Positions 2,129-14,978 of a stretch of DNA of 24,000 nucleotides are shown here, one piece after another. Source of the DNA: Feifania hominis (lineage in GTDB: Bacteria > Bacillota > Clostridia > Oscillospirales > Feifaniaceae); contig NZ_JACRSP010000001.1 in NCBI RefSeq assembly GCF_014384765.1, forward strand, positions 484,759 to 508,758, given 5' to 3'. How positions within the stretch are numbered: position 1 is the first letter of the stretch; each line of letters begins with the position of its first letter. The notes under the pieces were generated by a model, which saw nothing but the letters and a program-made list of their open reading frames with translations, did not search any database and had not been told where the DNA came from. Made by a program: the position numbers and the translations under genes.

Positions 2129-3127
2129 ATGACGGGACGTGAGAGAAGAAGAGAGCTGTTTTCTCTGCTGCCGCCGCGCGTGTCGGCTTTGATTGAACAC
2201 ATCGGAAGCGAGCCGCTCGAGGCGCTCGAGGAGATCCGCCTACGGGCACAGCGCCCTGTGTCACTGACTCTTGCGGGCCACAACTATTTTATCAGTGAGG
2301 ACGCCGAGATCACCTACGACGCCTCGCGCGCGGTGTGTCTCACGCCGCAGGAGCTTGAACAGTGCTATCTGCGCGCCTGTGAAAACTCGGTTTACACCTT
2401 TCAGGAGGATATTGCCAGAGGCTTTGTCACTGTCAAGAACGGCAACCGGGTCGGCATTGCGGGCAGTGCTGTCGTCGAGGCAGGCAGAGTGGTCGGCTTT
2501 CGCAACATCAGCTCTCTGTGCCTTCGCTTTGCGCGTGAGATTCGCGGCGCGGGCGAGCAGCTCTTTGAGCGGCTCTACCCGGATGGTACCGTGGTCGGCA
2601 CACTCATTGTCTCCCCGCCGAAGATGGGAAAGACGACGCTGCTGCGCGATCTCATTCGCACGGTGAGCTGCCGCGGACTCCGCGTCGCCGTCGTGGACGA
2701 GCGCGGCGAGCTTGCGGCGATGCGAGGCGGTGCTGCCTGCAGTGATATCGGCCCCTGCACCGATGTGCTCGATGCGATTCCGAAAGCCATCGGGTGCGAA
2801 TACGCCATACGGAATCTCTCACCGGAGGTTATCGCCTTTGACGAAATCGGCTCCATGGGGGAAGTCGAGGCGGTTTTGCAGTCTCTCAATGCCGGTGTGC
2901 CGGTACTCACCACCTGTCACGCCGGCTCCTGGGAAGAGCTTTGGCGCAGGCCGCCGCTGAGAGCTCTATTGGGGAGCAGCGCGATCTGTAAAGTCATAAA
3001 GCTTAACAACAAAAAGACCGGTGTCGTTGACGCCATCTGGGACTGGAGGAGCGACGATGTTCAAAATGGTGGGAATGTGTCTGATTCTATTGACAACCAC
3101 ATTTGCCGGATCGGCGCTGTCCGCTGA
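2129..3127 (+). CDS. spoIIIAA: Stage III sporulation protein AA (ATPase)
   Basis: Walker A SPPKMGKTTLLRDL and a Walker B-like EVIAFDEIG are present. It is the first gene of an eight-gene set with spoIIIA order and sizes. AGGAG lies 8 nt upstream of the ATG. Confidence 0.9.
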   Translation: MTGRERRRELFSLLPPRVSALIEHIGSEPLEALEEIRLRAQRPVSLTLAGHNYFISEDAEITYDASRAVCLTPQELEQCYLRACENSVYTFQEDIARGFVTVKNGNRVGIAGSAVVEAGRVVGFRNISSLCLRFAREIRGAGEQLFERLYPDGTVVGTLIVSPPKMGKTTLLRDLIRTVSCRGLRVAVVDERGELAAMRGGAACSDIGPCTDVLDAIPKAIGCEYAIRNLSPEVIAFDEIGSMGEVEAVLQSLNAGVPVLTTCHAGSWEELWRRPPLRALLGSSAICKVIKLNNKKTGVVDAIWDWRSDDVQNGGNVSDSIDNHICRIGAVR

Positions 3128-3551
3128 TCTCAAGAGGAGAATTCGTGATCTGCGCCTGTGCGCCGATCTGATTGCAAAGATAGGCCGTGAGATCTCCTAC
3201 AGCCGCTGCCCCATCACGGAGGTGCTGGGGAGATGCGCGCAGGAAAAAAAGTATGCGCCGCTTCGGTTTTTGCAGCTTTCGAAGCCCTTCGACAGTGAGA
3301 GATTTCGTCTTCACTATGAGAAAAATCGGGATTCTCTATGCCTGAAAAACGAGGACCACGATCTGATTTTGGAATTCTTCGCCGACTTTGGCAAGAGCGA
3401 TGCAGTGGGGGAGCTGGCGCGCTGCGGTAAGTATGAGGCGGAGCTGGCGCGCCGCGTGGAAGAGCTCGAGCCGGCTATCGAAAAACAGGCCAAGCTCTAC
3501 CGCTCGCTCGGTGTGTTGTCGGGCGTGTTTCTCTCGATTCTGATGGTTTAG
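3057..3551 (+). CDS. spoIIIAB: Stage III sporulation protein AB
   Basis: MFKMVGMCLILLTTTFAGSALS is an N-terminal TM segment, and the ~165-aa helical body matches the usual SpoIIIAB layout. GGAGGAG lies upstream of the ATG at 3057. The ORF-track start at 3021 has no RBS. Confidence 0.8.
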   Translation: MFKMVGMCLILLTTTFAGSALSADLKRRIRDLRLCADLIAKIGREISYSRCPITEVLGRCAQEKKYAPLRFLQLSKPFDSERFRLHYEKNRDSLCLKNEDHDLILEFFADFGKSDAVGELARCGKYEAELARRVEELEPAIEKQAKLYRSLGVLSGVFLSILMV

Positions 3552-3576
3552 CGAAACGGAAAGGAGCCTCAACAGT

Positions 3577-3771
3577 ATGGATGTCAATCTCATCTTCAAA
3601 ATCGCGGCAGTCGGCATCATTGTCAGTGTTTTAAATCAACTTTTGACCAAGGCCGGCCGGGAGGAACAGGCGCTGATGACGACGCTGACTGGCCTGATCG
3701 TTGTGCTGCTCATGGTGATCCGGGAGATCAAGTATCTCTTCGATATGATACAGAGCACGTTTGGGCTCTAG
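3577..3771 (+). CDS. spoIIIAC: Stage III sporulation protein AC
   Basis: A 64-aa protein with two TM segments (IFKIAAVGIIVSVLNQLL...LTGLIVVLLMVI), with position and size typical of SpoIIIAC. AAGGAG RBS. Confidence 0.85.
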   Translation: MDVNLIFKIAAVGIIVSVLNQLLTKAGREEQALMTTLTGLIVVLLMVIREIKYLFDMIQSTFGL

Positions 3772-3780
3772 GGGGAGACC

Positions 3781-4164
3781 ATGAACATCTTTGCCCTGTG
3801 CGGCTTCATCATCGTAGCAGCGCTGATTTCACTGACACTGCGCGACTACAAAAAGGAGTATGCGGTGCTCATCGGACTCGCCGTCTGCATCTTCGCGGTG
3901 CTCACGGCGCTGCCCGACATACTCAAGCTCTTTCGTTTTATCAGTGACACGGCAAACTCTGTCAGCGGAATGGGCGGCAAGCTCGAGCCGCTTTTGAAAG
4001 CTCTGGGGATTGCCTTTGTCACGGAGATTGCCTCCAATCTCTGCATTGACACGGGCGAGCGGTCCATGGCGGGCAAGATCGAGCTGCTCGGCAAAGTCTC
4101 GATCCTCATTGTCTCGCTGCCGCTCGCGCAGCAGGTGCTCGATGTCATCAAAGGACTTTTGTAA
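3781..4164 (+). CDS. spoIIIAD: Stage III sporulation protein AD
   Basis: A 127-aa polytopic membrane protein in the fourth operon position. GGGGGAG RBS. Confidence 0.85.
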   Translation: MNIFALCGFIIVAALISLTLRDYKKEYAVLIGLAVCIFAVLTALPDILKLFRFISDTANSVSGMGGKLEPLLKALGIAFVTEIASNLCIDTGERSMAGKIELLGKVSILIVSLPLAQQVLDVIKGLL

Positions 4165-4177
4165 ATGAGAGGATGTT

Positions 4178-5311
4178 ATGAAACAGGCGTTTCGATTTTT
4201 GGCGGCGGCCGTTGTGCTGATGCTTCTGTGTTCCCTAACAGCCCATGCAGTCGATGTCAACGAGATCTACTCGGATGTCGCCGACCGCTTCGGGGTGAGC
4301 GAGCTGATCGACGCCGCGCCTGACGCTGCGCGTGGGTCGCTCTCCGGCGAGCAGGTGAGCCCGAGCGGGCTGCTCAACCTGCTGTCCATGAACAATGTAT
4401 TAAATCTTCTGACAAACGGTCTCTTTGGCGTACTGGGCGAGTGTCTGTCGGGCTGTGCGGTGCTGCTCGTGGCGGTTCTGGTCTTTTTGCTGCTGGCGGG
4501 ACTTCGCGACTCATTTCACAGCAGCGCCATTGTGCCAACGTTCAATCTGGTCGCGGTGTTGACCATCTCGCTTGTGGTATACGGCATCATTTCGGGCGCA
4601 TACAGCGCCGCATTTACCGCCACAAAGGACATCACGGCGTTCATCTCCACACTCATGCCGGTGATGGCCGCCACCATGGCAGCCGGCGGGGAAGTGGTAT
4701 CGGTGGGAATCCTGCCGCCGGCAATCCTGACGGCGATCAATCTGCTCTCCTGGCTGAATACCTCCGTCTTTCTGCCCACGCTCAACTTCTACTTTGCGCT
4801 GAGTTTCATCTCGGCTGTCAACCCGAGACTCAATCTCAAAGAGCTGATGAATTTTATCAAAAAGGCGCTCATGTGGGGCATGGGGATTGCGACGACGATT
4901 CTCGTCGGGCTGCTGTCGCTTCAGAAAATGATCACCGGAGCGTCGGACAACATCACGGGCCGCGCGGCCAAGTTTGCGCTCTCGAGTTTTGTACCCATCA
5001 TCGGCGGCGTACTCAAAGACGCCTTTGATACGGTGGCAGGCTGTGTCTCAGTGATCAAGGCGACCTGCGGTGTGTTCGGCATTGTGGTCATCATCTACAC
5101 CATGCTGCCGATTCTGGCAAGAGTCATTCTGTACAATGTCGGCTTTCGTCTCTCCTCGTCCGTTGCGCAGATCAGCGGCCAGAGCAGTGTCTCGAATTTT
5201 CTCGACTCCGTGTCCAACATCTGGAGTATTCTGACGGCAATTCTGGTCAGTGAGGGGGTCTTTGCCATCGTCTCGGTGGCAGTGGTCATCTCAACGGGAG
5301 GTGGGACATGA
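4178..5311 (+). CDS. spoIIIAE: Stage III sporulation protein AE
   Basis: A 377-aa product with a signal-peptide-like N-terminus (LAAAVVLMLLCSLTAHA) and multiple TM segments, in the fifth operon position. Confidence 0.85.
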   Translation: MKQAFRFLAAAVVLMLLCSLTAHAVDVNEIYSDVADRFGVSELIDAAPDAARGSLSGEQVSPSGLLNLLSMNNVLNLLTNGLFGVLGECLSGCAVLLVAVLVFLLLAGLRDSFHSSAIVPTFNLVAVLTISLVVYGIISGAYSAAFTATKDITAFISTLMPVMAATMAAGGEVVSVGILPPAILTAINLLSWLNTSVFLPTLNFYFALSFISAVNPRLNLKELMNFIKKALMWGMGIATTILVGLLSLQKMITGASDNITGRAAKFALSSFVPIIGGVLKDAFDTVAGCVSVIKATCGVFGIVVIIYTMLPILARVILYNVGFRLSSSVAQISGQSSVSNFLDSVSNIWSILTAILVSEGVFAIVSVAVVISTGGGT

Positions 5312-5793
5312 TGGCGTTTTTAAAAGACTGGTGTATCACCGTTGCGGCAGCGGCCATCATTGTCGGCTTTCTTGAGGCGCTTGTGCCGGCGCAGAGCATG
5401 CAGAAGACCATGAAGACCGTGACGGCGCTCTTTCTTCTGGCAATTCTCTTCGCGCCGCTCGCCAAGCTCAAGGGGCTGCCTCTCTACTATAAAAATGAGA
5501 TTCAGACCGGCGCCTATGAGCAGCTTCCCCAGAGTGTGAGCGACCAGACAAGGCAGCAGGTGCTTGAGTTGACAAGGACCGAGCTGATTCACCAGATTGA
5601 AACTCTGGCGTCGGCCAGACTGGGGAAAAATATCAATGTAATTGATGTGACAATGAATTTCGCGGACAACGATCTCATATATTTAAGCGAGGTTGTCATT
5701 TCGCAGCATGACGATCTTGAAAAGGATATGGAAAAGCTGACATCCGTGCTGCGCGCGGAGCTCGGCGAGGACATTGTGATCACAGTGAAGTGA
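5308..5793 (+). CDS. spoIIIAF: Stage III sporulation protein AF
   Basis: A 161-aa product with two N-terminal TM segments and a soluble C-terminal domain. Its start overlaps the spoIIIAE stop (ATGATG/TGA). Sixth operon position. Confidence 0.7.
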   Translation: MMAFLKDWCITVAAAAIIVGFLEALVPAQSMQKTMKTVTALFLLAILFAPLAKLKGLPLYYKNEIQTGAYEQLPQSVSDQTRQQVLELTRTELIHQIETLASARLGKNINVIDVTMNFADNDLIYLSEVVISQHDDLEKDMEKLTSVLRAELGEDIVITVK

Positions 5794-5804
5794 GGTGCAA
5801 AAGA

Positions 5805-6350
5805 ATGGAAGACTGGAAAGACCGACTGACACGTCTCTTCAAGGGAAAGCGTCTGACGCTGTTTCTGATTCTGGGACTCATCGGCATTGCCCTGATTCTG
5901 CTCTCGGAGTTCTGGCCGGCCTCAAAGCCCAAACAGAGCGATCAGAGCACCGTGACAGCAGCTGATATGGAGCGCGATCTTCTCAAGCTCATTTCCAATG
6001 TGGAAGGCGTTGGCAAGGCGGAAGTCATGATCACACTCGCGACCGGCGTTGAGAATGTCTATGCGACCGAACAACGGGTCAATCAAAATGTGCTCTCAGA
6101 CAGTACAAACGGCGTGTTGGGGCGAACGGAGAACAAAAACGACACCCAGGACACGGTCATTGTCGTACGCGACAGCAGCGGGGCTGAGGCTCCCATTCTC
6201 ATCAAACAGATCGAGCCCAAGGTGCAGGGCGTCGCGGTCATCTGCGAGGGGGCAGACAGCCCGTATGTCAAAAGCAGCATCGTCGAGATGGTGACGACAA
6301 TCTATGATATTTCATCCAACAGAGTCTGCGTAATCAAAAAGAACAGTTGA
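5805..6350 (+). CDS. spoIIIAG: Stage III sporulation protein AG
   Basis: One TM segment (LTLFLILGLIGIALILL) precedes a C-terminal domain ending VQGVAVICEGADSPYVKSSIVEMVTTIYDISSNRVCV, typical of the SpoIIIAG ring-forming domain. The ATG at 5805 has GAGGT 7 nt upstream. The GTG at 5790 is less likely. Confidence 0.75.
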   Translation: MEDWKDRLTRLFKGKRLTLFLILGLIGIALILLSEFWPASKPKQSDQSTVTAADMERDLLKLISNVEGVGKAEVMITLATGVENVYATEQRVNQNVLSDSTNGVLGRTENKNDTQDTVIVVRDSSGAEAPILIKQIEPKVQGVAVICEGADSPYVKSSIVEMVTTIYDISSNRVCVIKKNS

Positions 6351-6363
6351 GGAGGAACGAATC

Positions 6364-6924
6364 ATGGCATTCAAAAAGAGGCAGCTCATTCTCTTATCAC
6401 TGGTGGCGGTAATTTGTGTGGCGGCATTTCTGAACTGGAAATTTAACACCACCGACAACCCGCTCGGTCTGCCCGACACAGAGGACAGCGAGTCCACGGC
6501 AAAGAATTTGGGTGAGGCGAAGCTGGTCAACGGTGAGGGCGGCGTCGACGTCGAGGTGAGTGCGCCGGTCGAATCTGACGAATATTTCACCGAGGCGCGG
6601 CTCAACCGCCAGAAGACCCGTGATGAGGCACTTGCTCTGCTCGAGGAGGTCACCGCGGACAAGAACAACCCCGAGGATATCCGCAAGCAGGCGGCAAGCG
6701 ACATTTCGCAGATTGCAAAGTCGGTTGAAACCGAGGGCAAAATCGAGAATCTTGTAAAGGCAAAGGGATTTGACGACTGTGTCACCGTTCTGTCCACCGA
6801 CAGCATTCACGTCATTGTCAAGACAAAGGGGCTTGTGGACAGCGAGGTGGCCCAGATCAAGGAGATTGTGCTCGGCCAGACCGAACTTACGGGCGAGCAG
6901 ATCAAAATCGTCGAGATCAAATAG
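6364..6924 (+). CDS. spoIIIAH: Stage III sporulation protein AH
   Basis: An N-terminal TM segment (LILLSLVAVICVAAFL), an acidic linker and a C-terminal YscJ/FliF-like region (EARLNRQKTRDEAL...). It is the last gene of the operon. GAGGAGG RBS. Confidence 0.75.
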   Translation: MAFKKRQLILLSLVAVICVAAFLNWKFNTTDNPLGLPDTEDSESTAKNLGEAKLVNGEGGVDVEVSAPVESDEYFTEARLNRQKTRDEALALLEEVTADKNNPEDIRKQAASDISQIAKSVETEGKIENLVKAKGFDDCVTVLSTDSIHVIVKTKGLVDSEVAQIKEIVLGQTELTGEQIKIVEIK

Positions 6925-7530: not shown

Positions 7531-7992
7531 ATGAAACGCACCGAAGCGAGAATCGAGACGTTCAAGCTCGTCTACGAGTATGATTTTCACCGGGAGAAGA
7601 CACCGCAGCAGATCTATGAGATGGCGGTGACCGAGAGAGAGCTCTGCGACGACACCTACATCAGAGAGACCTTTGACGGCGTTGTGAAAAACATGGACCA
7701 AATTGATGAGATCATCAAGGAAAACGCCATCGGCTGGAAGATCAACCGCATCTCCCATGTGGCGCTGGCCGTCACGCGGCTTGCCATCTACGAGATGCTC
7801 TATTCGCACGATATTTCCCATGCCGTTGCAATCAACGAGGCGGTGGAGATCGCCAAGCTCTACGAGGGAAAGGACGCAGCCTCTTTCATCAACGGTATTT
7901 TGGGCTCGGTTTCCAAGAAGAACCCGAAGACCGACCTTGAGCCTGCGGCCGAGAAAAAAGAGGAGCCGTCAGTCGGCGAGGCGGGGGAGTAA
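7531..7992 (+). CDS. nusB: Transcription antitermination factor NusB
   Basis: RTEARIETFKLVYEYDF, RISHVALAVTRLAIYEM, AINEAVEIAKLY and FINGILG follow the NusB pattern. GGAGG precedes the ATG at 7531. The ORF-track start at 7489 has no RBS. Confidence 0.9.
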   Translation: MKRTEARIETFKLVYEYDFHREKTPQQIYEMAVTERELCDDTYIRETFDGVVKNMDQIDEIIKENAIGWKINRISHVALAVTRLAIYEMLYSHDISHAVAINEAVEIAKLYEGKDAASFINGILGSVSKKNPKTDLEPAAEKKEEPSVGEAGE

Positions 7993-8954
7993 TGGCCTGC
8001 TACCTCGGAATTGACACCAGTAATTACACCACTTCCGTGGCGAGATACGACAGTGACAGCGGCCGGATGACCGGCCGGCGAAAGCTGCTGCCGGTCGAGG
8101 GAGAAAAGACAGGCTTGCGTCAAAACGAGGCTGTTTTTTTGCATAACCGGCAGCTGCCCGAGCTGCTGGAAGAACTGCTTTGCGACGGCGCCCGACCGGA
8201 CGCCGTCAGTGTGTCACGCGCCCCACGGGACTGTGAGGGTTCCTACATGCCCTGCTTTACCGTGGGTCACGGCTATGCGAGAGCACTCGCGGCCGCCTTG
8301 TGCGTGCCGCTCTTTGAGACGTCCCACCAGAAGGGGCATGTGCTAGCGGCGCTCTACGGCGCCGATTCGCTTGCGCTGCTGCGCGAGCCCTTTTTGGCCT
8401 TTCATGTCTCGGGCGGTACCACGGAGCTTCTGCATGTCACGCCGGATGGTGACGAACGAATCAAAATCAGTCTGCTCGGGGGGACGCTCGATCTCCCGGC
8501 GGGACAGGTCATCGACCGGCTGGGCGTTTCCATGGGCTTTTCTTTTCCCTGCGGTGCTCAGATGGAGCAGTACGCCATCGAGAATCCCGACGGGCAGACA
8601 CTCCGGCCGCTTGTCACATTGCGCGACGGTGGCTTTCATCTCTCGGGACTCGAGAACAAGGCGCACGAACATCTTGCGAGGGGCGCCGGGCGGACAGCAG
8701 TGATTCAATTTCTCTTCGACAGCATAGGAGAGAGTATCCGGGCTCTGACAAAACAGGCGCTCTCAGATATGGAGGTCAAAAAAGTCGTCTTCGCGGGCGG
8801 CGTCATGTCGAACGCGCGAATCAAGGCGCTGCTCGGCGGAGATTTACCGGCTGTTTTCACACCGAGCGCCTATGCCGCCGACAATGCGATGGGAGTGGCG
8901 CTCTGGGGCGCGCTCAACAGGGAGGAGCTATGCAAAACGAAAGTGCGGTTGTGA
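7992..8954 (+). CDS. TsaD/Kae1 (peptidase M22, ASKHA-fold) family protein, divergent
   Basis: It has LGIDTSNYTTSVA (ASKHA phosphate-1-like N-terminus), SHQKGH (an HxxxH metal motif as in the TsaD family) and a C-terminal FAGGVMSN. The start overlaps the nusB stop (TAATG). The exact function cannot be assigned from sequence alone. Confidence 0.5.
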   Translation: MACYLGIDTSNYTTSVARYDSDSGRMTGRRKLLPVEGEKTGLRQNEAVFLHNRQLPELLEELLCDGARPDAVSVSRAPRDCEGSYMPCFTVGHGYARALAAALCVPLFETSHQKGHVLAALYGADSLALLREPFLAFHVSGGTTELLHVTPDGDERIKISLLGGTLDLPAGQVIDRLGVSMGFSFPCGAQMEQYAIENPDGQTLRPLVTLRDGGFHLSGLENKAHEHLARGAGRTAVIQFLFDSIGESIRALTKQALSDMEVKKVVFAGGVMSNARIKALLGGDLPAVFTPSAYAADNAMGVALWGALNREELCKTKVRL

Positions 8955-10394: not shown

Positions 10395-11282
10395 ATGAAT
10401 TTTGATCGGAGAATGCAGGCACATCTGGATCTAACCGAACATGCGCTTCGCGCCTATCTGCCCAAGGAGCGCCTTGCACAGCAGCGTATTGTCGAGGCGA
10501 TGGAGTATTCGCTTCTCGCCGGCGGCAAGCGGGTTCGTCCCGTGCTGATGCTGGAATTTTGCAGGGTGTCAGGCGGGGAGGAGCGGCTTGTGCTGCCGCT
10601 GGCGGCGGCACTTGAAATGATTCACACCTACTCGCTGATTCACGATGATCTGCCCTGCATGGACAACGACGATCTGCGCCGCGGGCGGCCCACCAGCCAC
10701 CGTGTTTTCGGAGAGGCCATGGCGACGCTTGCGGGCGACGCCCTGCTAAACTACGCCGCTGAGACGGCACTCGGCGCAGATGGGCCGGACTATCTCGACC
10801 CCGCGCTGCGGCTGCGCGCCGTATGCGAGCTCTTCGGCGCGGCCGGGGTCTATGGCATGATCGGCGGTCAGGTGCTTGACATGGAACGGGAAAACAGAGC
10901 TCTGTCGCTCGATCAGGTACTTGAGACCCACAGGCTCAAGACCGGCGCTCTGATCTGCGCCGCGGCACGAATCGGCGTGATCTGCGCCGGCGCAAGCGAC
11001 GAGCTGCTCGAGGCGGCAACCGAGTACGCACAGAAAATCGGGCTCGTGTTTCAAATTGTCGATGACGTGCTCGACTGCAGCGGCAGCGCCCAGCAGCTCG
11101 GCAAGCAGACCGGAAGCGACGCCAGAAGCGGGAAGACGACGTTTGTCACGCTGCTCGGGGAGCAGGGGGCAATGGAGCGCGCGAGAGAGCTGACCGACGA
11201 GGCAAAACAGGCGCTCGCCCCTTTTGACGACGCCTCTTTTCTCTGTGAGTTTGCGGATCGTCTGTTGGTACGCCAAAGATAA
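10395..11282 (+). CDS. ispA: Farnesyl/geranyl-diphosphate synthase (polyprenyl synthetase family)
   Basis: The first Asp-rich motif is LIHDDLPCMDNDDLRRGRPT and the second is FQIVDDVLD. Size (295 aa) and position after xseB are conserved. Confidence 0.9.
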   Translation: MNFDRRMQAHLDLTEHALRAYLPKERLAQQRIVEAMEYSLLAGGKRVRPVLMLEFCRVSGGEERLVLPLAAALEMIHTYSLIHDDLPCMDNDDLRRGRPTSHRVFGEAMATLAGDALLNYAAETALGADGPDYLDPALRLRAVCELFGAAGVYGMIGGQVLDMERENRALSLDQVLETHRLKTGALICAAARIGVICAGASDELLEAATEYAQKIGLVFQIVDDVLDCSGSAQQLGKQTGSDARSGKTTFVTLLGEQGAMERARELTDEAKQALAPFDDASFLCEFADRLLVRQR

Positions 11283-11294
11283 TGGAGGGCGATT

Positions 11295-11741
11295 GTGAGC
11301 AATATTGTCAAGGAACTGACAGGCAACTACATTTTGAACTGTGCGGTCATCACCTGGGCCATTGCACAGATTTTAAAGGTTTTTACCTATCTACTCGTAA
11401 CGAAAGAACTGAAGCTCAGCCGCCTGCTCGGCTCCGGCGGCATGCCGAGCTCCCACACGGCCTTTGTCGCAAGCGCGACCATCGCCGTCTACCGTGTTGA
11501 GGGAATACACTCCGTGGCGTTCGCCATCATGTTTGTCATTCTGATGGTTATCATCTCGGACGCGGTCGGCGTGCGCCGTCAGGCGGGGGAACACGCAAGG
11601 GTTCTCAATATCATCATGGAGAACTGGGAACAGTCCAAGAAAAAGCCCATTGACAAAAATCTCAAAGAGCTACTCGGCCACACGCCGTTTGAGGTCTTCG
11701 GCGGCTTTCTGCTCGCCATCATCATGGCTTTTTTCTACTGA
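11295..11741 (+). CDS. Divergent PAP2 / acid-phosphatase-related membrane protein (DUF212, YuiD-like)
   Basis: A 148-aa polytopic protein with GGMPSSHTA and SDAVGVRRQAGEH motifs characteristic of the DUF212 / divergent PAP2 family. GGAGGG lies 5 nt upstream of the GTG start. Confidence 0.75.
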   Translation: MSNIVKELTGNYILNCAVITWAIAQILKVFTYLLVTKELKLSRLLGSGGMPSSHTAFVASATIAVYRVEGIHSVAFAIMFVILMVIISDAVGVRRQAGEHARVLNIIMENWEQSKKKPIDKNLKELLGHTPFEVFGGFLLAIIMAFFY

Positions 11742-11754
11742 ACAAACCGCGATT

Positions 11755-11783
11755 TGAATATTGGCGCAGGATATGGTACAATA
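11755..11783 (+). promoter_or_regulatory. Near-consensus sigma-A promoter directly upstream of the large non-coding region
   Basis: TTGAAT (11755-11760), a 17-nt spacer, then TACAAT (11778-11783). The predicted transcription start is near 11790. Confidence 0.6.
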
Positions 11784-11789
11784 ATTTCT

Positions 11790-12436
11790 GTCGCGGTGTT
11801 TTGCCGCGGCGCACGCTGTTTGACAAAAACGGTGGCGCAGTATTCTAGTCAGTGCTATCAGACTCCAGGGCGGGCCTAAAAATCCGCTAAAGGGCACTTC
11901 GATGAAACTTCTTGTGCCTGCTTTTTACGCCCAGTTTAGGGTGGGTGCTGGAAGGTAGGTGGCCGGGCCCTCTGTAATGGCATATGGATGCGGACCCGTT
12001 CACCAGTGAGACCTGGTTGCGTGGGCTGCCCGGGGAACTTTTCCAAAAGGGACAGTCTACGGGCCAGGGTGAAACCTGTTTTGCGATGCTTTGGTGTTGT
12101 GGACAGAGTAGCCTGCCTTGAGTGGGTTTGGCGAATAGGGGATCAGGCCGTCGGCGCATGGCCGTGTGCCGGCCGCTATTGCCCTTTGAAACCAAGTCTG
12201 CAAAAGAGGATAAGGTCTGATGTGACTGTAGAGGAAAACTCCTAGACTGTTCGAGAGAGACATTGCAGGGATTGCAGTGCGGACTCAGTGGTCATCGAGT
12301 ACCGGTACCGGCGACGATACCGGCGTGAATGTAAAGGGGAACCGCCCTCATGGCGACAGGGGGTATTTCACGCAGGGAAATCCTACTCGACCTTAAGCCG
12401 CAAGATTTACCTGTCATGCCGCCACCGACTTTTTTT
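11790..12436 (+). ncRNA. ole: Large structured non-coding RNA, OLE (ornate, large, extremophilic) RNA class candidate; boundaries approximate
   Basis: A 727-nt gap (11742-12468) lies in an otherwise tightly packed operon and has no credible ORF or RBS. It has its own promoter. It contains many stable local helices (for example 11893-11920, 11959-12005, 12147-12175, 12262-12280, 12362-12383), a helix pairing 12351-12360 with 12410-12424, and a T-tract at 12430-12436. It is in the same orientation as its neighbours. The context ispA - RNA - small 4-TM protein - dxs - tlyA - nadK - argR - recN matches the published OLE/oapA locus. No covariance-model search was possible. Confidence 0.75.
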
Positions 12437-12477
12437 ATTTCTTACAGTGAGCTGAATTTGTATTTTGGGTGAGGAAT

Positions 12478-13092
12478 ATGCCTGACGACAGTCAGAAGAA
12501 ACAGGAATCTACCAGCAAGAGCAACCGGATCAAAACACCCGGTCAAATGAAAAAGAAAATGAATATCAAGTGGGTCATCACAACGATTACACTCACGTTT
12601 ACCCTTTCGGTGGTGTTCTATCTGATCTCCGATTCGGTTCTGCCGTTATTGAGTGTGGTCAGTTCGTTTGTTGTCCTGCTTGTTTTTATATTTATCGGTA
12701 TTTTTTTTGATTTGATCGGCACCGCCGTGCAGACGGCGGACGAGAGGCCCTTTCACTCGATGTCGGCGCGCAAAGTCGACGCGGCCCGTGAGGCGGTATC
12801 GCTGATTCGCAATGCCGAGAAAGTTGCAAACGTCTGCAATGATGTCATCGGGGACATCTCCGGCATCATCAGCGGTTCGACCGGCGCGATCATCATCTCC
12901 TTTCTCATCGCGTCCAATCCCGGTCTCAACAGCATCGTGGTCGGCACGGTTCTGACCTCCCTCGTCGCGGCGGTGACCGTCGGCGGCAAGGCTGTGGGCA
13001 AGACCATCGCCATCAACAATGCCAACACCATCATCTACGCGGTCGCGCGGGTGATTTCGCTGTTTAAAAAAATATTCAGAGTATCGAGGTAA
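12478..13092 (+). CDS. oapA: Small four-TM membrane protein, OLE-associated protein A (OapA)-like
   Basis: A Lys-rich N-terminal tail precedes four hydrophobic segments: WVITTITLTFTLSVVFYLI, VVSSFVVLLVFIFIGIFFDLIG, ISGIISGSTGAIIISFLIA and IVVGTVLTSLVAAVTVGG. It lies directly downstream of the RNA and directly upstream of dxs, as described for oapA. The start is ambiguous between GTG 12469 and ATG 12478. Confidence 0.65.
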   Translation: MPDDSQKKQESTSKSNRIKTPGQMKKKMNIKWVITTITLTFTLSVVFYLISDSVLPLLSVVSSFVVLLVFIFIGIFFDLIGTAVQTADERPFHSMSARKVDAAREAVSLIRNAEKVANVCNDVIGDISGIISGSTGAIIISFLIASNPGLNSIVVGTVLTSLVAAVTVGGKAVGKTIAINNANTIIYAVARVISLFKKIFRVSR

Positions 13093-13097
13093 GATCG

Positions 13098-14978
13098 TTG
13101 AATCATCCCACACTTGAGAGGATTGACAATGCGGATAAGATCAAAGCGGCGAGTCTGTCCGAACTCGATATGCTCGCGGCCGACATCCGCTCGTTTCTCA
13201 TTGAGCACATCTCAAAGACCGGGGGGCATCTCGCTTCAAACCTCGGTGTGGTCGAGCTGACCATCGCGCTTCACAATGTGCTGAATTTCCCGCAGGATCA
13301 GGTCGTTTTTGATGTGGGCCATCAGGCCTATACCCACAAAATTCTCACCGGGCGAAGAGATCGCTTTGATACGCTTCGCCAGTTTCAGGGGCTCTCGGGC
13401 TTCCCAAAACCCCATGAGAGCGACTGTGACGCCTTTGGCACCGGACACAGCAGCACTTCCATCTCTGCGGCAGTGGGGCTCGCCACGGCAAAAAAGCTCA
13501 GGGGGGAGGCCGGCCATGTCGTCGCCGTAATCGGTGACGGCGCCATGACGGGAGGGCTTGCCTACGAGGGACTCAACAACATCACGGAAGAGCTTGACAA
13601 TCTGATCATCGTACTCAACGACAATGAGCTCTCCATATCAAAAAACGTCGGGTCGCTCGCGGAGTATCTGGCAAAGCTGACGAGCAAGCCCGCCTATTTT
13701 CGCATCAAAGACGCGACAAAAAAAGTGGTGCTGCACATCCCGCTGATCGGCCGGGGGCTCTACCGCGTCATCCATGACACCAAGAGTGTTTTCAAGACAC
13801 TCCTGGTCGGCAGCAACTTCTTTGAGGATCTCGGCATCACCTACTTCGGTCCGATCGACGGCCATGACATCAAGGCGGTGTCAAAGGTGCTCGGGCGCGC
13901 CATGACCATCGGTAAGCCCGCGCTGATTCACCTCAAAACCGTCAAAGGCAAGGGGTATGTCTACGCGGAAAACGATCCGACGGCCTTTCACGGCATTGCC
14001 TCTTTTGATATGGACACCGGCGAACATCCGTCCAACTTGACGGACAGCTTTTCAAAGGTCTTTGGCGACAGCCTCTATGCTCTGGCGCAGCAGGATGAAC
14101 GCATCTGCGCGATCACGGCCGCCATGACCGAGGGCGTCTCTCTGTGCCGCTTCGCCGCGGCGATGCCGCAGCGTTTCTTCGATGTGGGCATTGCGGAGGG
14201 GCATGCCGTCACCTTTGCGGCGGGGCTTGCCAAGGCAGGCATGCGGCCCTGTTTTGCGGTCTATTCCTCTTTCTTGCAGCGCGCCTACGACGAGATCGTC
14301 CACGATGTGGCTCTGCAAAATCTACCCGTGACCTTTCTGGTGGACCGCGCGGGCATCGTCGGGGAGGACGGGGAGACCCACCAGGGGATTTTCGACGTGT
14401 CCTATCTCACGTCGATTCCCAATATGACGGTCTATTCTCCCTACACCTATACGCAGCTCAAGGCGCTGCTCGGTGAAATGGGGCGGTGTGAGGGCCCGAC
14501 AGCAATCCGTATCCCGCGCGGCGGGATGGAGGGGCGTTTTGCCGACTGCTATGAGATCGGTGACTATGCCGTATACGGCCGCGAAGACGCGTCGGCGGCT
14601 GTCGTGACTTACGGGCGTATGACCGCGCAGGCGCTCGACGCGTGCGAAGAGCTCGAAAAGAGTGGAATTCACACAAAAGTTATCTCACTGCTGAAAATCA
14701 AGCCCATTGATTTTGACGCGCTCTTCTGTGCGCTTGCGCACTGCCGCAAAGTGGTATTTCTGGAGGAATCGGAGCGCATCGGCGGCATTGCGCAGCAGCT
14801 GGCGGCGGAACTTCTCAGCCGCCGCTTTGCGGGCAGGTACACCATTCTGGCCCTGAATGACACCTACGTCGAGCAGGGAAAGCCGCAGCAGCTTTTGAGA
14901 GTTTATGGAATCAGCGCGCAGGACGTGGTGCGCGCCATAGCGGAGGAGGACGCCGGTGAGCGAGAAGAAGAGACTTGA
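13098..14978 (+). CDS. dxs: 1-deoxy-D-xylulose-5-phosphate synthase
   Basis: A 626-aa product with VGHQAYTHKILTGRR and the TPP-binding GDGAMTGGLAYEGLNN, plus transketolase-like middle and C-terminal domains. The TTG start has GAGGT 8 nt upstream. Confidence 0.95.
   Translation: MNHPTLERIDNADKIKAASLSELDMLAADIRSFLIEHISKTGGHLASNLGVVELTIALHNVLNFPQDQVVFDVGHQAYTHKILTGRRDRFDTLRQFQGLSGFPKPHESDCDAFGTGHSSTSISAAVGLATAKKLRGEAGHVVAVIGDGAMTGGLAYEGLNNITEELDNLIIVLNDNELSISKNVGSLAEYLAKLTSKPAYFRIKDATKKVVLHIPLIGRGLYRVIHDTKSVFKTLLVGSNFFEDLGITYFGPIDGHDIKAVSKVLGRAMTIGKPALIHLKTVKGKGYVYAENDPTAFHGIASFDMDTGEHPSNLTDSFSKVFGDSLYALAQQDERICAITAAMTEGVSLCRFAAAMPQRFFDVGIAEGHAVTFAAGLAKAGMRPCFAVYSSFLQRAYDEIVHDVALQNLPVTFLVDRAGIVGEDGETHQGIFDVSYLTSIPNMTVYSPYTYTQLKALLGEMGRCEGPTAIRIPRGGMEGRFADCYEIGDYAVYGREDASAAVVTYGRMTAQALDACEELEKSGIHTKVISLLKIKPIDFDALFCALAHCRKVVFLEESERIGGIAQQLAAELLSRRFAGRYTILALNDTYVEQGKPQQLLRVYGISAQDVVRAIAEEDAGEREEET

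Follow-up and report, generated by a model that had tools for sequence, protein, structure and literature searches.

The 24,000-nucleotide stretch of Feifania hominis DNA analyzed here (contig NZ_JACRSP010000001.1, positions 484,759–508,758; hereafter the window) carries on its forward strand a full-length OLE RNA, which is followed after 36 nucleotides (nt) by the ATG of an open reading frame (ORF) at 12478–13092 and then by dxs (Table 1). F. hominis, a human-gut anaerobe, belongs to the family Feifaniaceae of the Clostridia, and OLE is the single Rfam family detected in the window. A sequence-only reading of this DNA had described the ORF as encoding a protein of about 205 amino acids (aa) between the RNA and dxs and had put it forward as a candidate OapA; the predicted product has 204 aa, and both flanking features are where that reading placed them. 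The OLE ribonucleoprotein is among the largest bacterial non-coding RNA complexes of unsolved biochemical function, and the one protein partner that it cannot do without is OapA. The published hallmarks of OapA are a mass of 21 kDa, four transmembrane (TM) helices and a conserved cluster of positive charges on the cytoplasmic face (PMC12265935), as well as a distinctive DxxxD motif, a weak homology to CNNM/DUF21 without the CNNM proline, and a structure that matches CorB (7M1U) best (PMC11332333). The window protein combines a tandem position after ole, a mass of about 21 kDa with four TM helices, the DxxxD motif, a weak CNNM similarity and a predicted cytoplasmic basic cluster, and we are confident that it is the F. 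hominis orthologue of OapA, the integral-membrane subunit of the OLE ribonucleoprotein.

The ORF is a real gene rather than a chance reading frame, because the database holds 2275 homologues of its product at E ≤ 1e-3, with the best non-self matches near 1e-50. A 155-aa antisense ORF (12646–13113, − strand) covers almost all of oapA; it is taken as a by-product of the GC-rich coding strand, since it is the + strand ORF that has the homologues. The ATG at 12478 is in the frame of a listed ORF (12469–13092, + strand) that opens earlier, at a GTG at 12469. Just 5′ of this ATG lies the Shine–Dalgarno-like GGGTGAGGAA, and on reading the sequence no comparable element was found before GTG 12469 or before an internal ATG at 12559. 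The NCBI record for the same protein (P0001, Feifania hominis, 100% identity) has 177 aa, starts at that internal codon (M28) and is named “CNNM domain-containing protein”; it thus leaves out a basic tail of 27 residues (12478–12558), whose existence hinges on the start call. Most homologues carry a Lys/Arg-rich extension before the first helix. Given the better Shine–Dalgarno element of ATG 12478 and the comparable extensions of homologues, the gene may be annotated too short at its 5′ end in the public record, and we favour the start at 12478 over M28.

An AlphaFold2 model of the protein, built from a 29-sequence alignment and with a mean pLDDT of 81.6, contains four long helices (TM0 to TM3 in Table 1), two short helices between the second and third of these (residues 90–97 and 103–111) and a C-terminal helix. 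The hydropathy windows concur with the model, so the four hydrophobic helices that had been read from the sequence stand. However, the acidic and Gly-rich motifs that the same reading had assigned to loops are placed differently by the model, with FFDLIGTAVQT lying within TM1 and CNDVIGDISGIISGSTG within TM2, and only ADERPFHS, among the motifs quoted, falling at a helix end or in a loop. The former two lie roughly where CorB binds Mg2+. The tail is predicted to be disordered, with residues 1–20 below a pLDDT of 50 and means of 37, 41 and then 66 for successive blocks of ten residues. TM0 has a few conserved positions (F41 at 0.92, S51 at 0.94), and the Pfam CNNM match begins only at residue 69, i.e., past this helix. 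A cleavable signal peptide was rejected as the preferred reading of TM0, which is a 28-residue helix with conserved positions, joined to TM1 by a turn of two residues.

Table 1. Features of the ole–oapA region of the window, with oapA subdivided by predicted structure
Feature	Position	Strand	Remarks
ispA	10395–11282		between xseB and the DUF212 gene; Pfam/NCBIfam
DUF212 gene (divergent PAP2 phosphatase-like)	11295–11741	+	PF02681, 142 bits; between ispA and OLE
Promoter-like site	11754–11782	+	TTGAAT-17 nt-TACAAT with TG extension (extended −10); 34 nt upstream of OLE model start; consensus match only
OLE RNA, full length	11816–12441	+	Rfam RF01071, model positions 1–616; 445.3 bits, E 6.9e-128; gathering score 50
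Shine–Dalgarno-like element	12467–12476	+	GGGTGAGGAA, just 5′ of ATG 12478; read from sequence
oapA ORF	12478–13092	+	ATG start; stop codon included; 204 aa
N-terminal Lys/Ser-rich tail, aa 1–29	12478–12564	+	8 Lys/Arg vs. 3 Asp/Glu; predicted disordered
TM0, aa 30–57	12565–12648	+	AlphaFold2 helix; extra N-terminal helix absent from CNNM/CorB domains
TM1, aa 60–86	12655–12735	+	invariant G74, F77, D78, G81
Predicted cytoplasmic segment, aa 87–112	12736–12813	+	invariant ExPFH; two short helices; conserved basic residues K99, R104, R111, with K115 just after
TM2, aa 113–146	12814–12915	+	invariant N121, D122, V123, G125, D126, G133; C120 and G129 at 0.99
DxxxD motif (D122-V-I-G-D126)	12841–12855	+	OapA signature; invariant in 241 sequences
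TM3, aa 152–180	12931–13017	+	T167, G169, K171, G174, K175 invariant; G170, A172 at 0.99; no Glu, no Pro
C-terminal helix, aa 182–199, and basic tail	13021–13074	+	5 Lys/Arg, 0 Asp/Glu; matches start of CorB juxtamembrane helix
dxs	13098–14978	+	TIGR00204, 681 bits; start 5 nt past oapA stop

Judged from its sequences, OapA is a discrete family of stand-alone membrane proteins about 200 aa long. When 1.84 billion cluster representatives were searched with its profile, 1541 clusters were matched at E ≤ 1e-3, 602 of them at E ≤ 1e-30, and the 150 matches listed from this search are all short, stand-alone proteins (172–356 aa, mostly about 190–210 aa). In an alignment of 241 sequences, comprising both Clostridia-type and Bacillaceae members, the invariant residues of the membrane helices given in Table 1 are joined by P91, F92 and H93 in the predicted cytoplasmic segment. 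Basic residues are conserved in the TM1–TM2 cytoplasmic helices (Lys/Arg fractions of 0.98 for K99, 0.80 for R104, 1.00 for R111 and 0.95 for K115) and in the C-terminal helix (0.88 for R191). The cytoplasmic side of this cluster is assigned from the bias of Lys and Arg and from the topology of CorB (PMC8242095).

The charge bias itself is strong. Outside the helices, the tail, the 87–115 segment and the C-terminus of the window protein together hold 20 Lys/Arg residues, as opposed to 0 in the two short connecting turns. The inside-minus-outside difference of Lys plus Arg is therefore +20, and across the 241 members its median is +17 and its minimum +11. By the positive-inside rule, such a distribution predicts one fixed orientation for OapA, with both termini inside, and argues against the mixed- or dual-orientation arrangements that have been discussed (PMC12265935). 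A bias of at least +11 throughout the family may thus help researchers of the OLE complex on the orientation of OapA.

The window protein shares 45% identity (E 1e-48) with a protein of Oceanobacillus iheyensis (P0198), in which the DxxxD motif falls exactly at D100 and D104; the PM1 mutant of H. halodurans OapA is D100A/D104A (PMC9723947). The O. iheyensis gene begins 22 nt past an OLE RNA of 532 bits, in the cluster xseA-xseB-ispA-OLE-oapA-tlyA-argR-recN, from which dxs is absent.

According to the literature, ole and oapA are nearly always arranged in tandem, and oapA is confined to organisms that contain ole (PMC9723947, PMC11332333). Co-occurrence with OLE, which the sequence-only reading had proposed as a check, was tabulated in a collection with one genome per species, where at least 593 stretches encode relatives of the window protein; the best 80 loci, i.e., those closest to the query, were analyzed, and OLE was sought within 2.5 kb of the family member in each. 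Using the OLE of the window as the query, nhmmer placed an OLE-like sequence on the same strand and upstream of the family member in 78 of the 80 loci. Rfam models at the gathering threshold found it in 38 of the 39 loci scanned, including a fragment at a contig end (L038) that nhmmer had overlooked, which brings the combined total to 79 of the 80 nearest loci. The opposite pattern, that of a family common in genomes without OLE and never adjacent to it, was thus not found among these 80 loci. For 57 loci the flanks are complete; 46 of these have dxs downstream, 35 have ispA upstream and 9 have a DUF212 gene upstream. Across the loci, oapA tracks OLE more closely than it tracks the isoprenoid genes.

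Three of these loci depart from the usual arrangement. In a Clostridia metagenome-assembled genome (L009, 1677–2488), about 0.8–0.9 kb including a small DUF4177 ORF lies between OLE and oapA, compared with a usual gap of 15–100 nt. The loci L033 (1–5525) and L071 (1–5519), both from uncultured “Bacilli”-type metagenome-assembled genomes, have in common that a polysaccharide deacetylase gene precedes oapA and a gene for a pilin-like Ig-domain protein follows it. In L071, the deacetylase gene is itself preceded by OLE, at about 1.8 kb from oapA, whereas a response-regulator gene takes that place in L033. The contig of L071 (CAVEJT010000021.1) is labelled “Bacteroidaceae bacterium” and carries a full-length OLE (387 bits) along with oapA; it is probably mis-binned, because OLE and oapA are otherwise restricted to Bacillota.

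The similarity of the window protein to the CNNM/CorB transporters is weak. Its match to PF01595 (CNNM/DUF21) covers residues 69–204 with 28.2 bits, just under the gathering cut-off of 28.4 bits (E 1.8e-6), and no other domain was matched. OapA orthologues score 18–26 bits against the same model, as compared with 133 bits for MtCorB and 147 bits for E. coli PaeA. Based on a Foldseek search with the AlphaFold model, the top six matches in the PDB are all TM domains of CorB or CorC (MtCorB, 7m1t/7m1u; TpCorC, 7cfg/7cff). No Pfam match to the CBS-pair or CorC_HlyC domains was found in the window protein, which ends at residue 204, whereas the E. coli PaeA control shows both. TM3 (residues 152–180) contains neither Glu nor Pro, so that the invariant Glu-Ile-x-Pro turn of CNNM proteins is absent from it. 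A search of PDB sequences with the single sequence of the window protein gave no match at E ≤ 10, and a search with the family profile gave spurious matches to potassium channels and no CorB chains. Thus, the relationship to CorB is visible only through Pfam, the fold comparison and a weak profile–profile alignment.

In MtCorB, Mg2+ is coordinated by S21, S25, S71 and E111 together with the backbone carbonyls of S21 and G110, and a π-helical turn holds three residues, E111, I112 and P114, that are invariant all the way from archaea to humans (PMC8242095). An alignment by hhalign of the OapA family with the CorB TM domain gave the same register in three runs, with weak E values of 0.03–0.12; the CNNM profile (A2) was shallow, as the search for homologues of the MtCorB TM domain yielded only 33 short proteins. 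In this register, CorB S21 falls on OapA G74, F23-F24-S25 on F76-F77-D78, G70 on G125, and S71 on a gap immediately before D126; on the third helix, G110/E111 falls on K171/A172, or on G170/K171 if shifted by one, and G113/P114 on G174/K175. The Pfam start points (OapA residue 69 and MtCorB residue 13, both at profile position 2) put the register of TM1 about 3 residues off. The hhalign register was kept, with low confidence, since all three runs agree on it and it brings the FF motif into line, and the mapping of the Mg2+ site is tentative because of the weak scores and the other TM1 register hinted at by the Pfam coordinates. Whatever the register, TM3 lacks Glu and Pro. Tentatively, OapA might be viewed as having a pocket like that of CorB, reconstructed from three Asp and two Lys residues. 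The mapping of the DxxxD and GGKAxGK motifs onto the Mg2+ site of CorB (Ser to Asp, Glu to Lys or Ala), tentative as it is, may help those who study the OLE complex.

In H. halodurans, OapA binds OLE cooperatively, at a stoichiometry of 2:1 or higher and near P2 and P4a (PMC12265935), and it is needed for the membrane localization of OLE RNA, its loss leading to stress phenotypes (PMC12265935, PMC9723947). By transfer from that organism, the F. hominis protein would bind OLE RNA and bring it to the membrane, and the cell would likewise depend on it to tolerate cold, alcohol and Mg2+. The conserved basic residues on the cytoplasmic side (K99, R104, R111, K115, R191), rather than the variable N-terminal tail, would hold the RNA. 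The predicted fold is TM0 followed by a CNNM/CorB-type domain without the CBS or CorC regulatory domains, and the invariant buried charges D78, D122, D126, K171 and K175 may sit close to the position of Mg2+ coordination in CorB. As proposed by the Breaker laboratory (PMC11332333, PMC12265935), OLE RNA may substitute for the cytosolic regulatory domains that OapA lacks. Buried charges near the CorB Mg2+ site suggest that OapA is probably more than a passive anchor and that it probably takes part in cation handling or sensing; the Asp/Lys cluster would give it a role beyond anchoring that is related either to cations or to RNA contact.

A passive membrane anchor, which would tether OLE RNA without any ion-related activity, is the alternative to be taken most seriously, although we consider it rather unlikely. 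RNA binding and membrane localization of the RNA are all that has been demonstrated biochemically for OapA (PMC12265935), and the CNNM Mg2+ ligands and the Glu/Pro of the π-helix are not conserved, TM3 lacking both. However, a passive anchor would have no need for five invariant buried charges at the level of the CorB ion site. Moreover, mutation of DxxxD is dominant-negative and worse than deletion (PMC9723947), loss of OLE or OapA makes cells sensitive to Mg2+, and OapA and the Mg2+ exporter MpfA are anticorrelated (PMC11332333). A more speculative use of the same charges may be considered. K171 and K175 (GGKAxGK, in place of the Glu/Pro π-helix motif) and D78, D122 and D126 might form not a cation pathway but a surface that contacts and shields the phosphate backbone of OLE P3, for which a crossing of the bilayer has been proposed by recent cryo-EM. 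We regard this as a long shot; if true, a CNNM domain would have been turned, in OapA, into a protein that binds RNA within the membrane.

The Lys/Ser-rich N-terminal tail had been suggested by the sequence-only reading, and flagged there as an inference, to be a plausible surface for contact with the RNA. The tail does hold 8 Lys/Arg among 29 residues, the tails of the 241 homologues are always net positive, and the positive-inside rule puts them in the cytoplasm. However, tails range in length between 4 and 76 aa (the median is 24 among the Clostridia-type members and 10 in the Bacillaceae set, which includes the O. iheyensis orthologue), and conservation is limited to K27 and K31 flanking TM0. 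In addition, most of the tail has a low predicted confidence, the NCBI start removes it entirely, and the Breaker laboratory treats the N-terminal segment as a signal sequence that is left out of their models (PMC12265935). With the conserved basic residues lying elsewhere, the suggestion fared poorly, and it is improbable that the tail is the main RNA-contact surface. Being variable, predicted disordered and outside the NCBI annotation, the tail is more likely a positive-inside topology signal than an RNA-binding surface.

That the protein is an ordinary, autonomous Mg2+ transporter of the CNNM/CorB type, or a fragment of one, merely lying beside an RNA gene, is very improbable. Such a reading is encouraged by the names in use, as NCBI and other sources call the protein or its relatives “CNNM domain-containing protein” or “CorB”, and by the Pfam E value and the CorB/CorC structural matches given above. 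However, the score falls below the Pfam cut-off, the CBS and CorC_HlyC domains are absent, TM0 is extra, and no counterpart of the invariant E111 and P114 (PMC8242095) is found. Furthermore, neither the single sequence nor the profile reaches the CorB chains of the PDB, the listed matches of a profile that finds 1541 clusters are all short and stand-alone, and OLE is adjacent in 79 of the 80 loci. The constant length of about 200 aa and the family's own invariant motifs show that OapA is not a decaying CorB fragment. Hardly credible, finally, is a membrane protein of isoprenoid metabolism unrelated to the RNA, since, for all that ispA, the PAP2-like DUF212 gene and dxs flank oapA, the counts across loci favour OLE over each of these genes, O. 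iheyensis oapA follows OLE in a cluster without dxs, and no enzymatic domain was found in the product by Pfam and NCBIfam scans.

Some points weigh against the assignment to OapA and against what is built upon it. First, homology to the H. halodurans protein BH2780 is drawn only through the Bacillaceae orthologues, as BH2780 is not among the 120 matches listed for the window protein or for its Ornithinibacillus orthologue. Second, F. hominis is a gut anaerobe and not an extremophile, and the functional claims would be carried over to it from H. halodurans. Third, in L033, from an uncultured Bacilli metagenome-assembled genome, no Rfam OLE was found within 2.5 kb of oapA even at E ≤ 1; OLE may not adjoin oapA there, or it may have diverged beyond what the Rfam model recognizes. 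Fourth, the residue mapping onto the CorB site is weak and tentative, with the register of TM3 uncertain by one residue. Lastly, the start codon is not settled between 12478 and the M28 of NCBI, which leaves the tail in doubt.

Beyond the gene pair, Pfam and NCBIfam give the order of the window as gatB, an HD-domain gene, spoIIIAA to spoIIIAH, asp23, nusB, a TsaD-like gene, xseA, xseB, ispA, the DUF212/PAP2-like gene, OLE, oapA, dxs, tlyA, nadK, argR, recN and tyrS. No terminator-like site was predicted between OLE, oapA and dxs. Four promoter-like sites were found in the region, compared with 1.2 expected from shuffled sequences, and one of them precedes OLE (Table 1). At the very end of the DUF212 ORF (11715–11728, + strand), a weak hairpin precedes a T-run. 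Together with the promoter-like site, it suggests that OLE–oapA might have a transcription start of its own and not just read-through from ispA; the H. halodurans cluster has been reported to be transcribed together, into one polycistronic RNA (PMC12265935). The DUF212 insertion between ispA and OLE recurs in about 10 of the 80 related loci, and this gene is in keeping with the isoprenoid genes of the cluster. A complete spoIIIAA to spoIIIAH sporulation operon (2129–6924, + strand) is located about 5 kb upstream of OLE, with asp23 and nusB after it; the presence of ole has been reported to correlate with sporulation genes (PMC11332333). Between nusB and xseA, a 320-aa ORF (7992–8954, + strand) has a modest match to the TsaD family (71 bits).

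Compared with the CNNM/CorB/CorC/MpfA proteins (PF01595; 7M1T/7M1U, 7CFG/7CFF), OapA has the same DUF21 fold of TM1, a helix-turn-helix, TM2, TM3 and a juxtamembrane helix. The FF motif of TM1 and a Gly of TM2 align, the TM1–TM2 hairpin is basic in both (in CorB, it may bind lipid headgroups; PMC8242095), and both bury polar or charged residues at the level of the CorB ion site. The differences are as follows. First, OapA has four TM helices and CorB three (PMC11332333), the extra one being N-terminal, and OapA is without the acidic helical bundle, the CBS pair and the CorC domain. Second, in place of the CorB ligands, OapA would have G74 (for S21), D78 (for S25), D126 or a position beside it (for S71) and K171 or A172 (for E111). 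Third, OapA has its own motifs, DxxxD and GGKAxGK, and a function tied to an RNA partner. OapA works like the CNNM transporter family but is not a member of it.

The pairing of OLE with OapA has been known since 2006–2011 and has been surveyed across Bacillota; the window adds a further member, in the form of a clean and complete ole–oapA pair from a cultured human-gut anaerobe, and leaves existing knowledge unchanged. Like the OapA proteins of H. halodurans (BH2780) and C. botulinum (CLB_RS09010), the F. hominis protein is encoded directly downstream of ole on the same strand, has a mass of about 21–22 kDa, four predicted TM helices and the invariant DxxxD in TM2, and combines conserved basic residues clustered on the predicted cytoplasmic face with a weak CNNM similarity and CorB as the best structural match. 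The neighbourhood, xseA-xseB-ispA-OLE-oapA-dxs-tlyA-nadK-argR-recN, is also the same. The peculiarities of the F. hominis locus are minor, comprising a longer tail, the DUF212 gene and the possible OLE promoter. With respect to the known OapA proteins, the basic tail has 31 aa before W32, whereas about 10 are usual in the Bacillaceae set; a DUF212/PAP2-like gene stands between ispA and OLE; and the host is a Clostridia species of the human gut rather than an alkaliphile.

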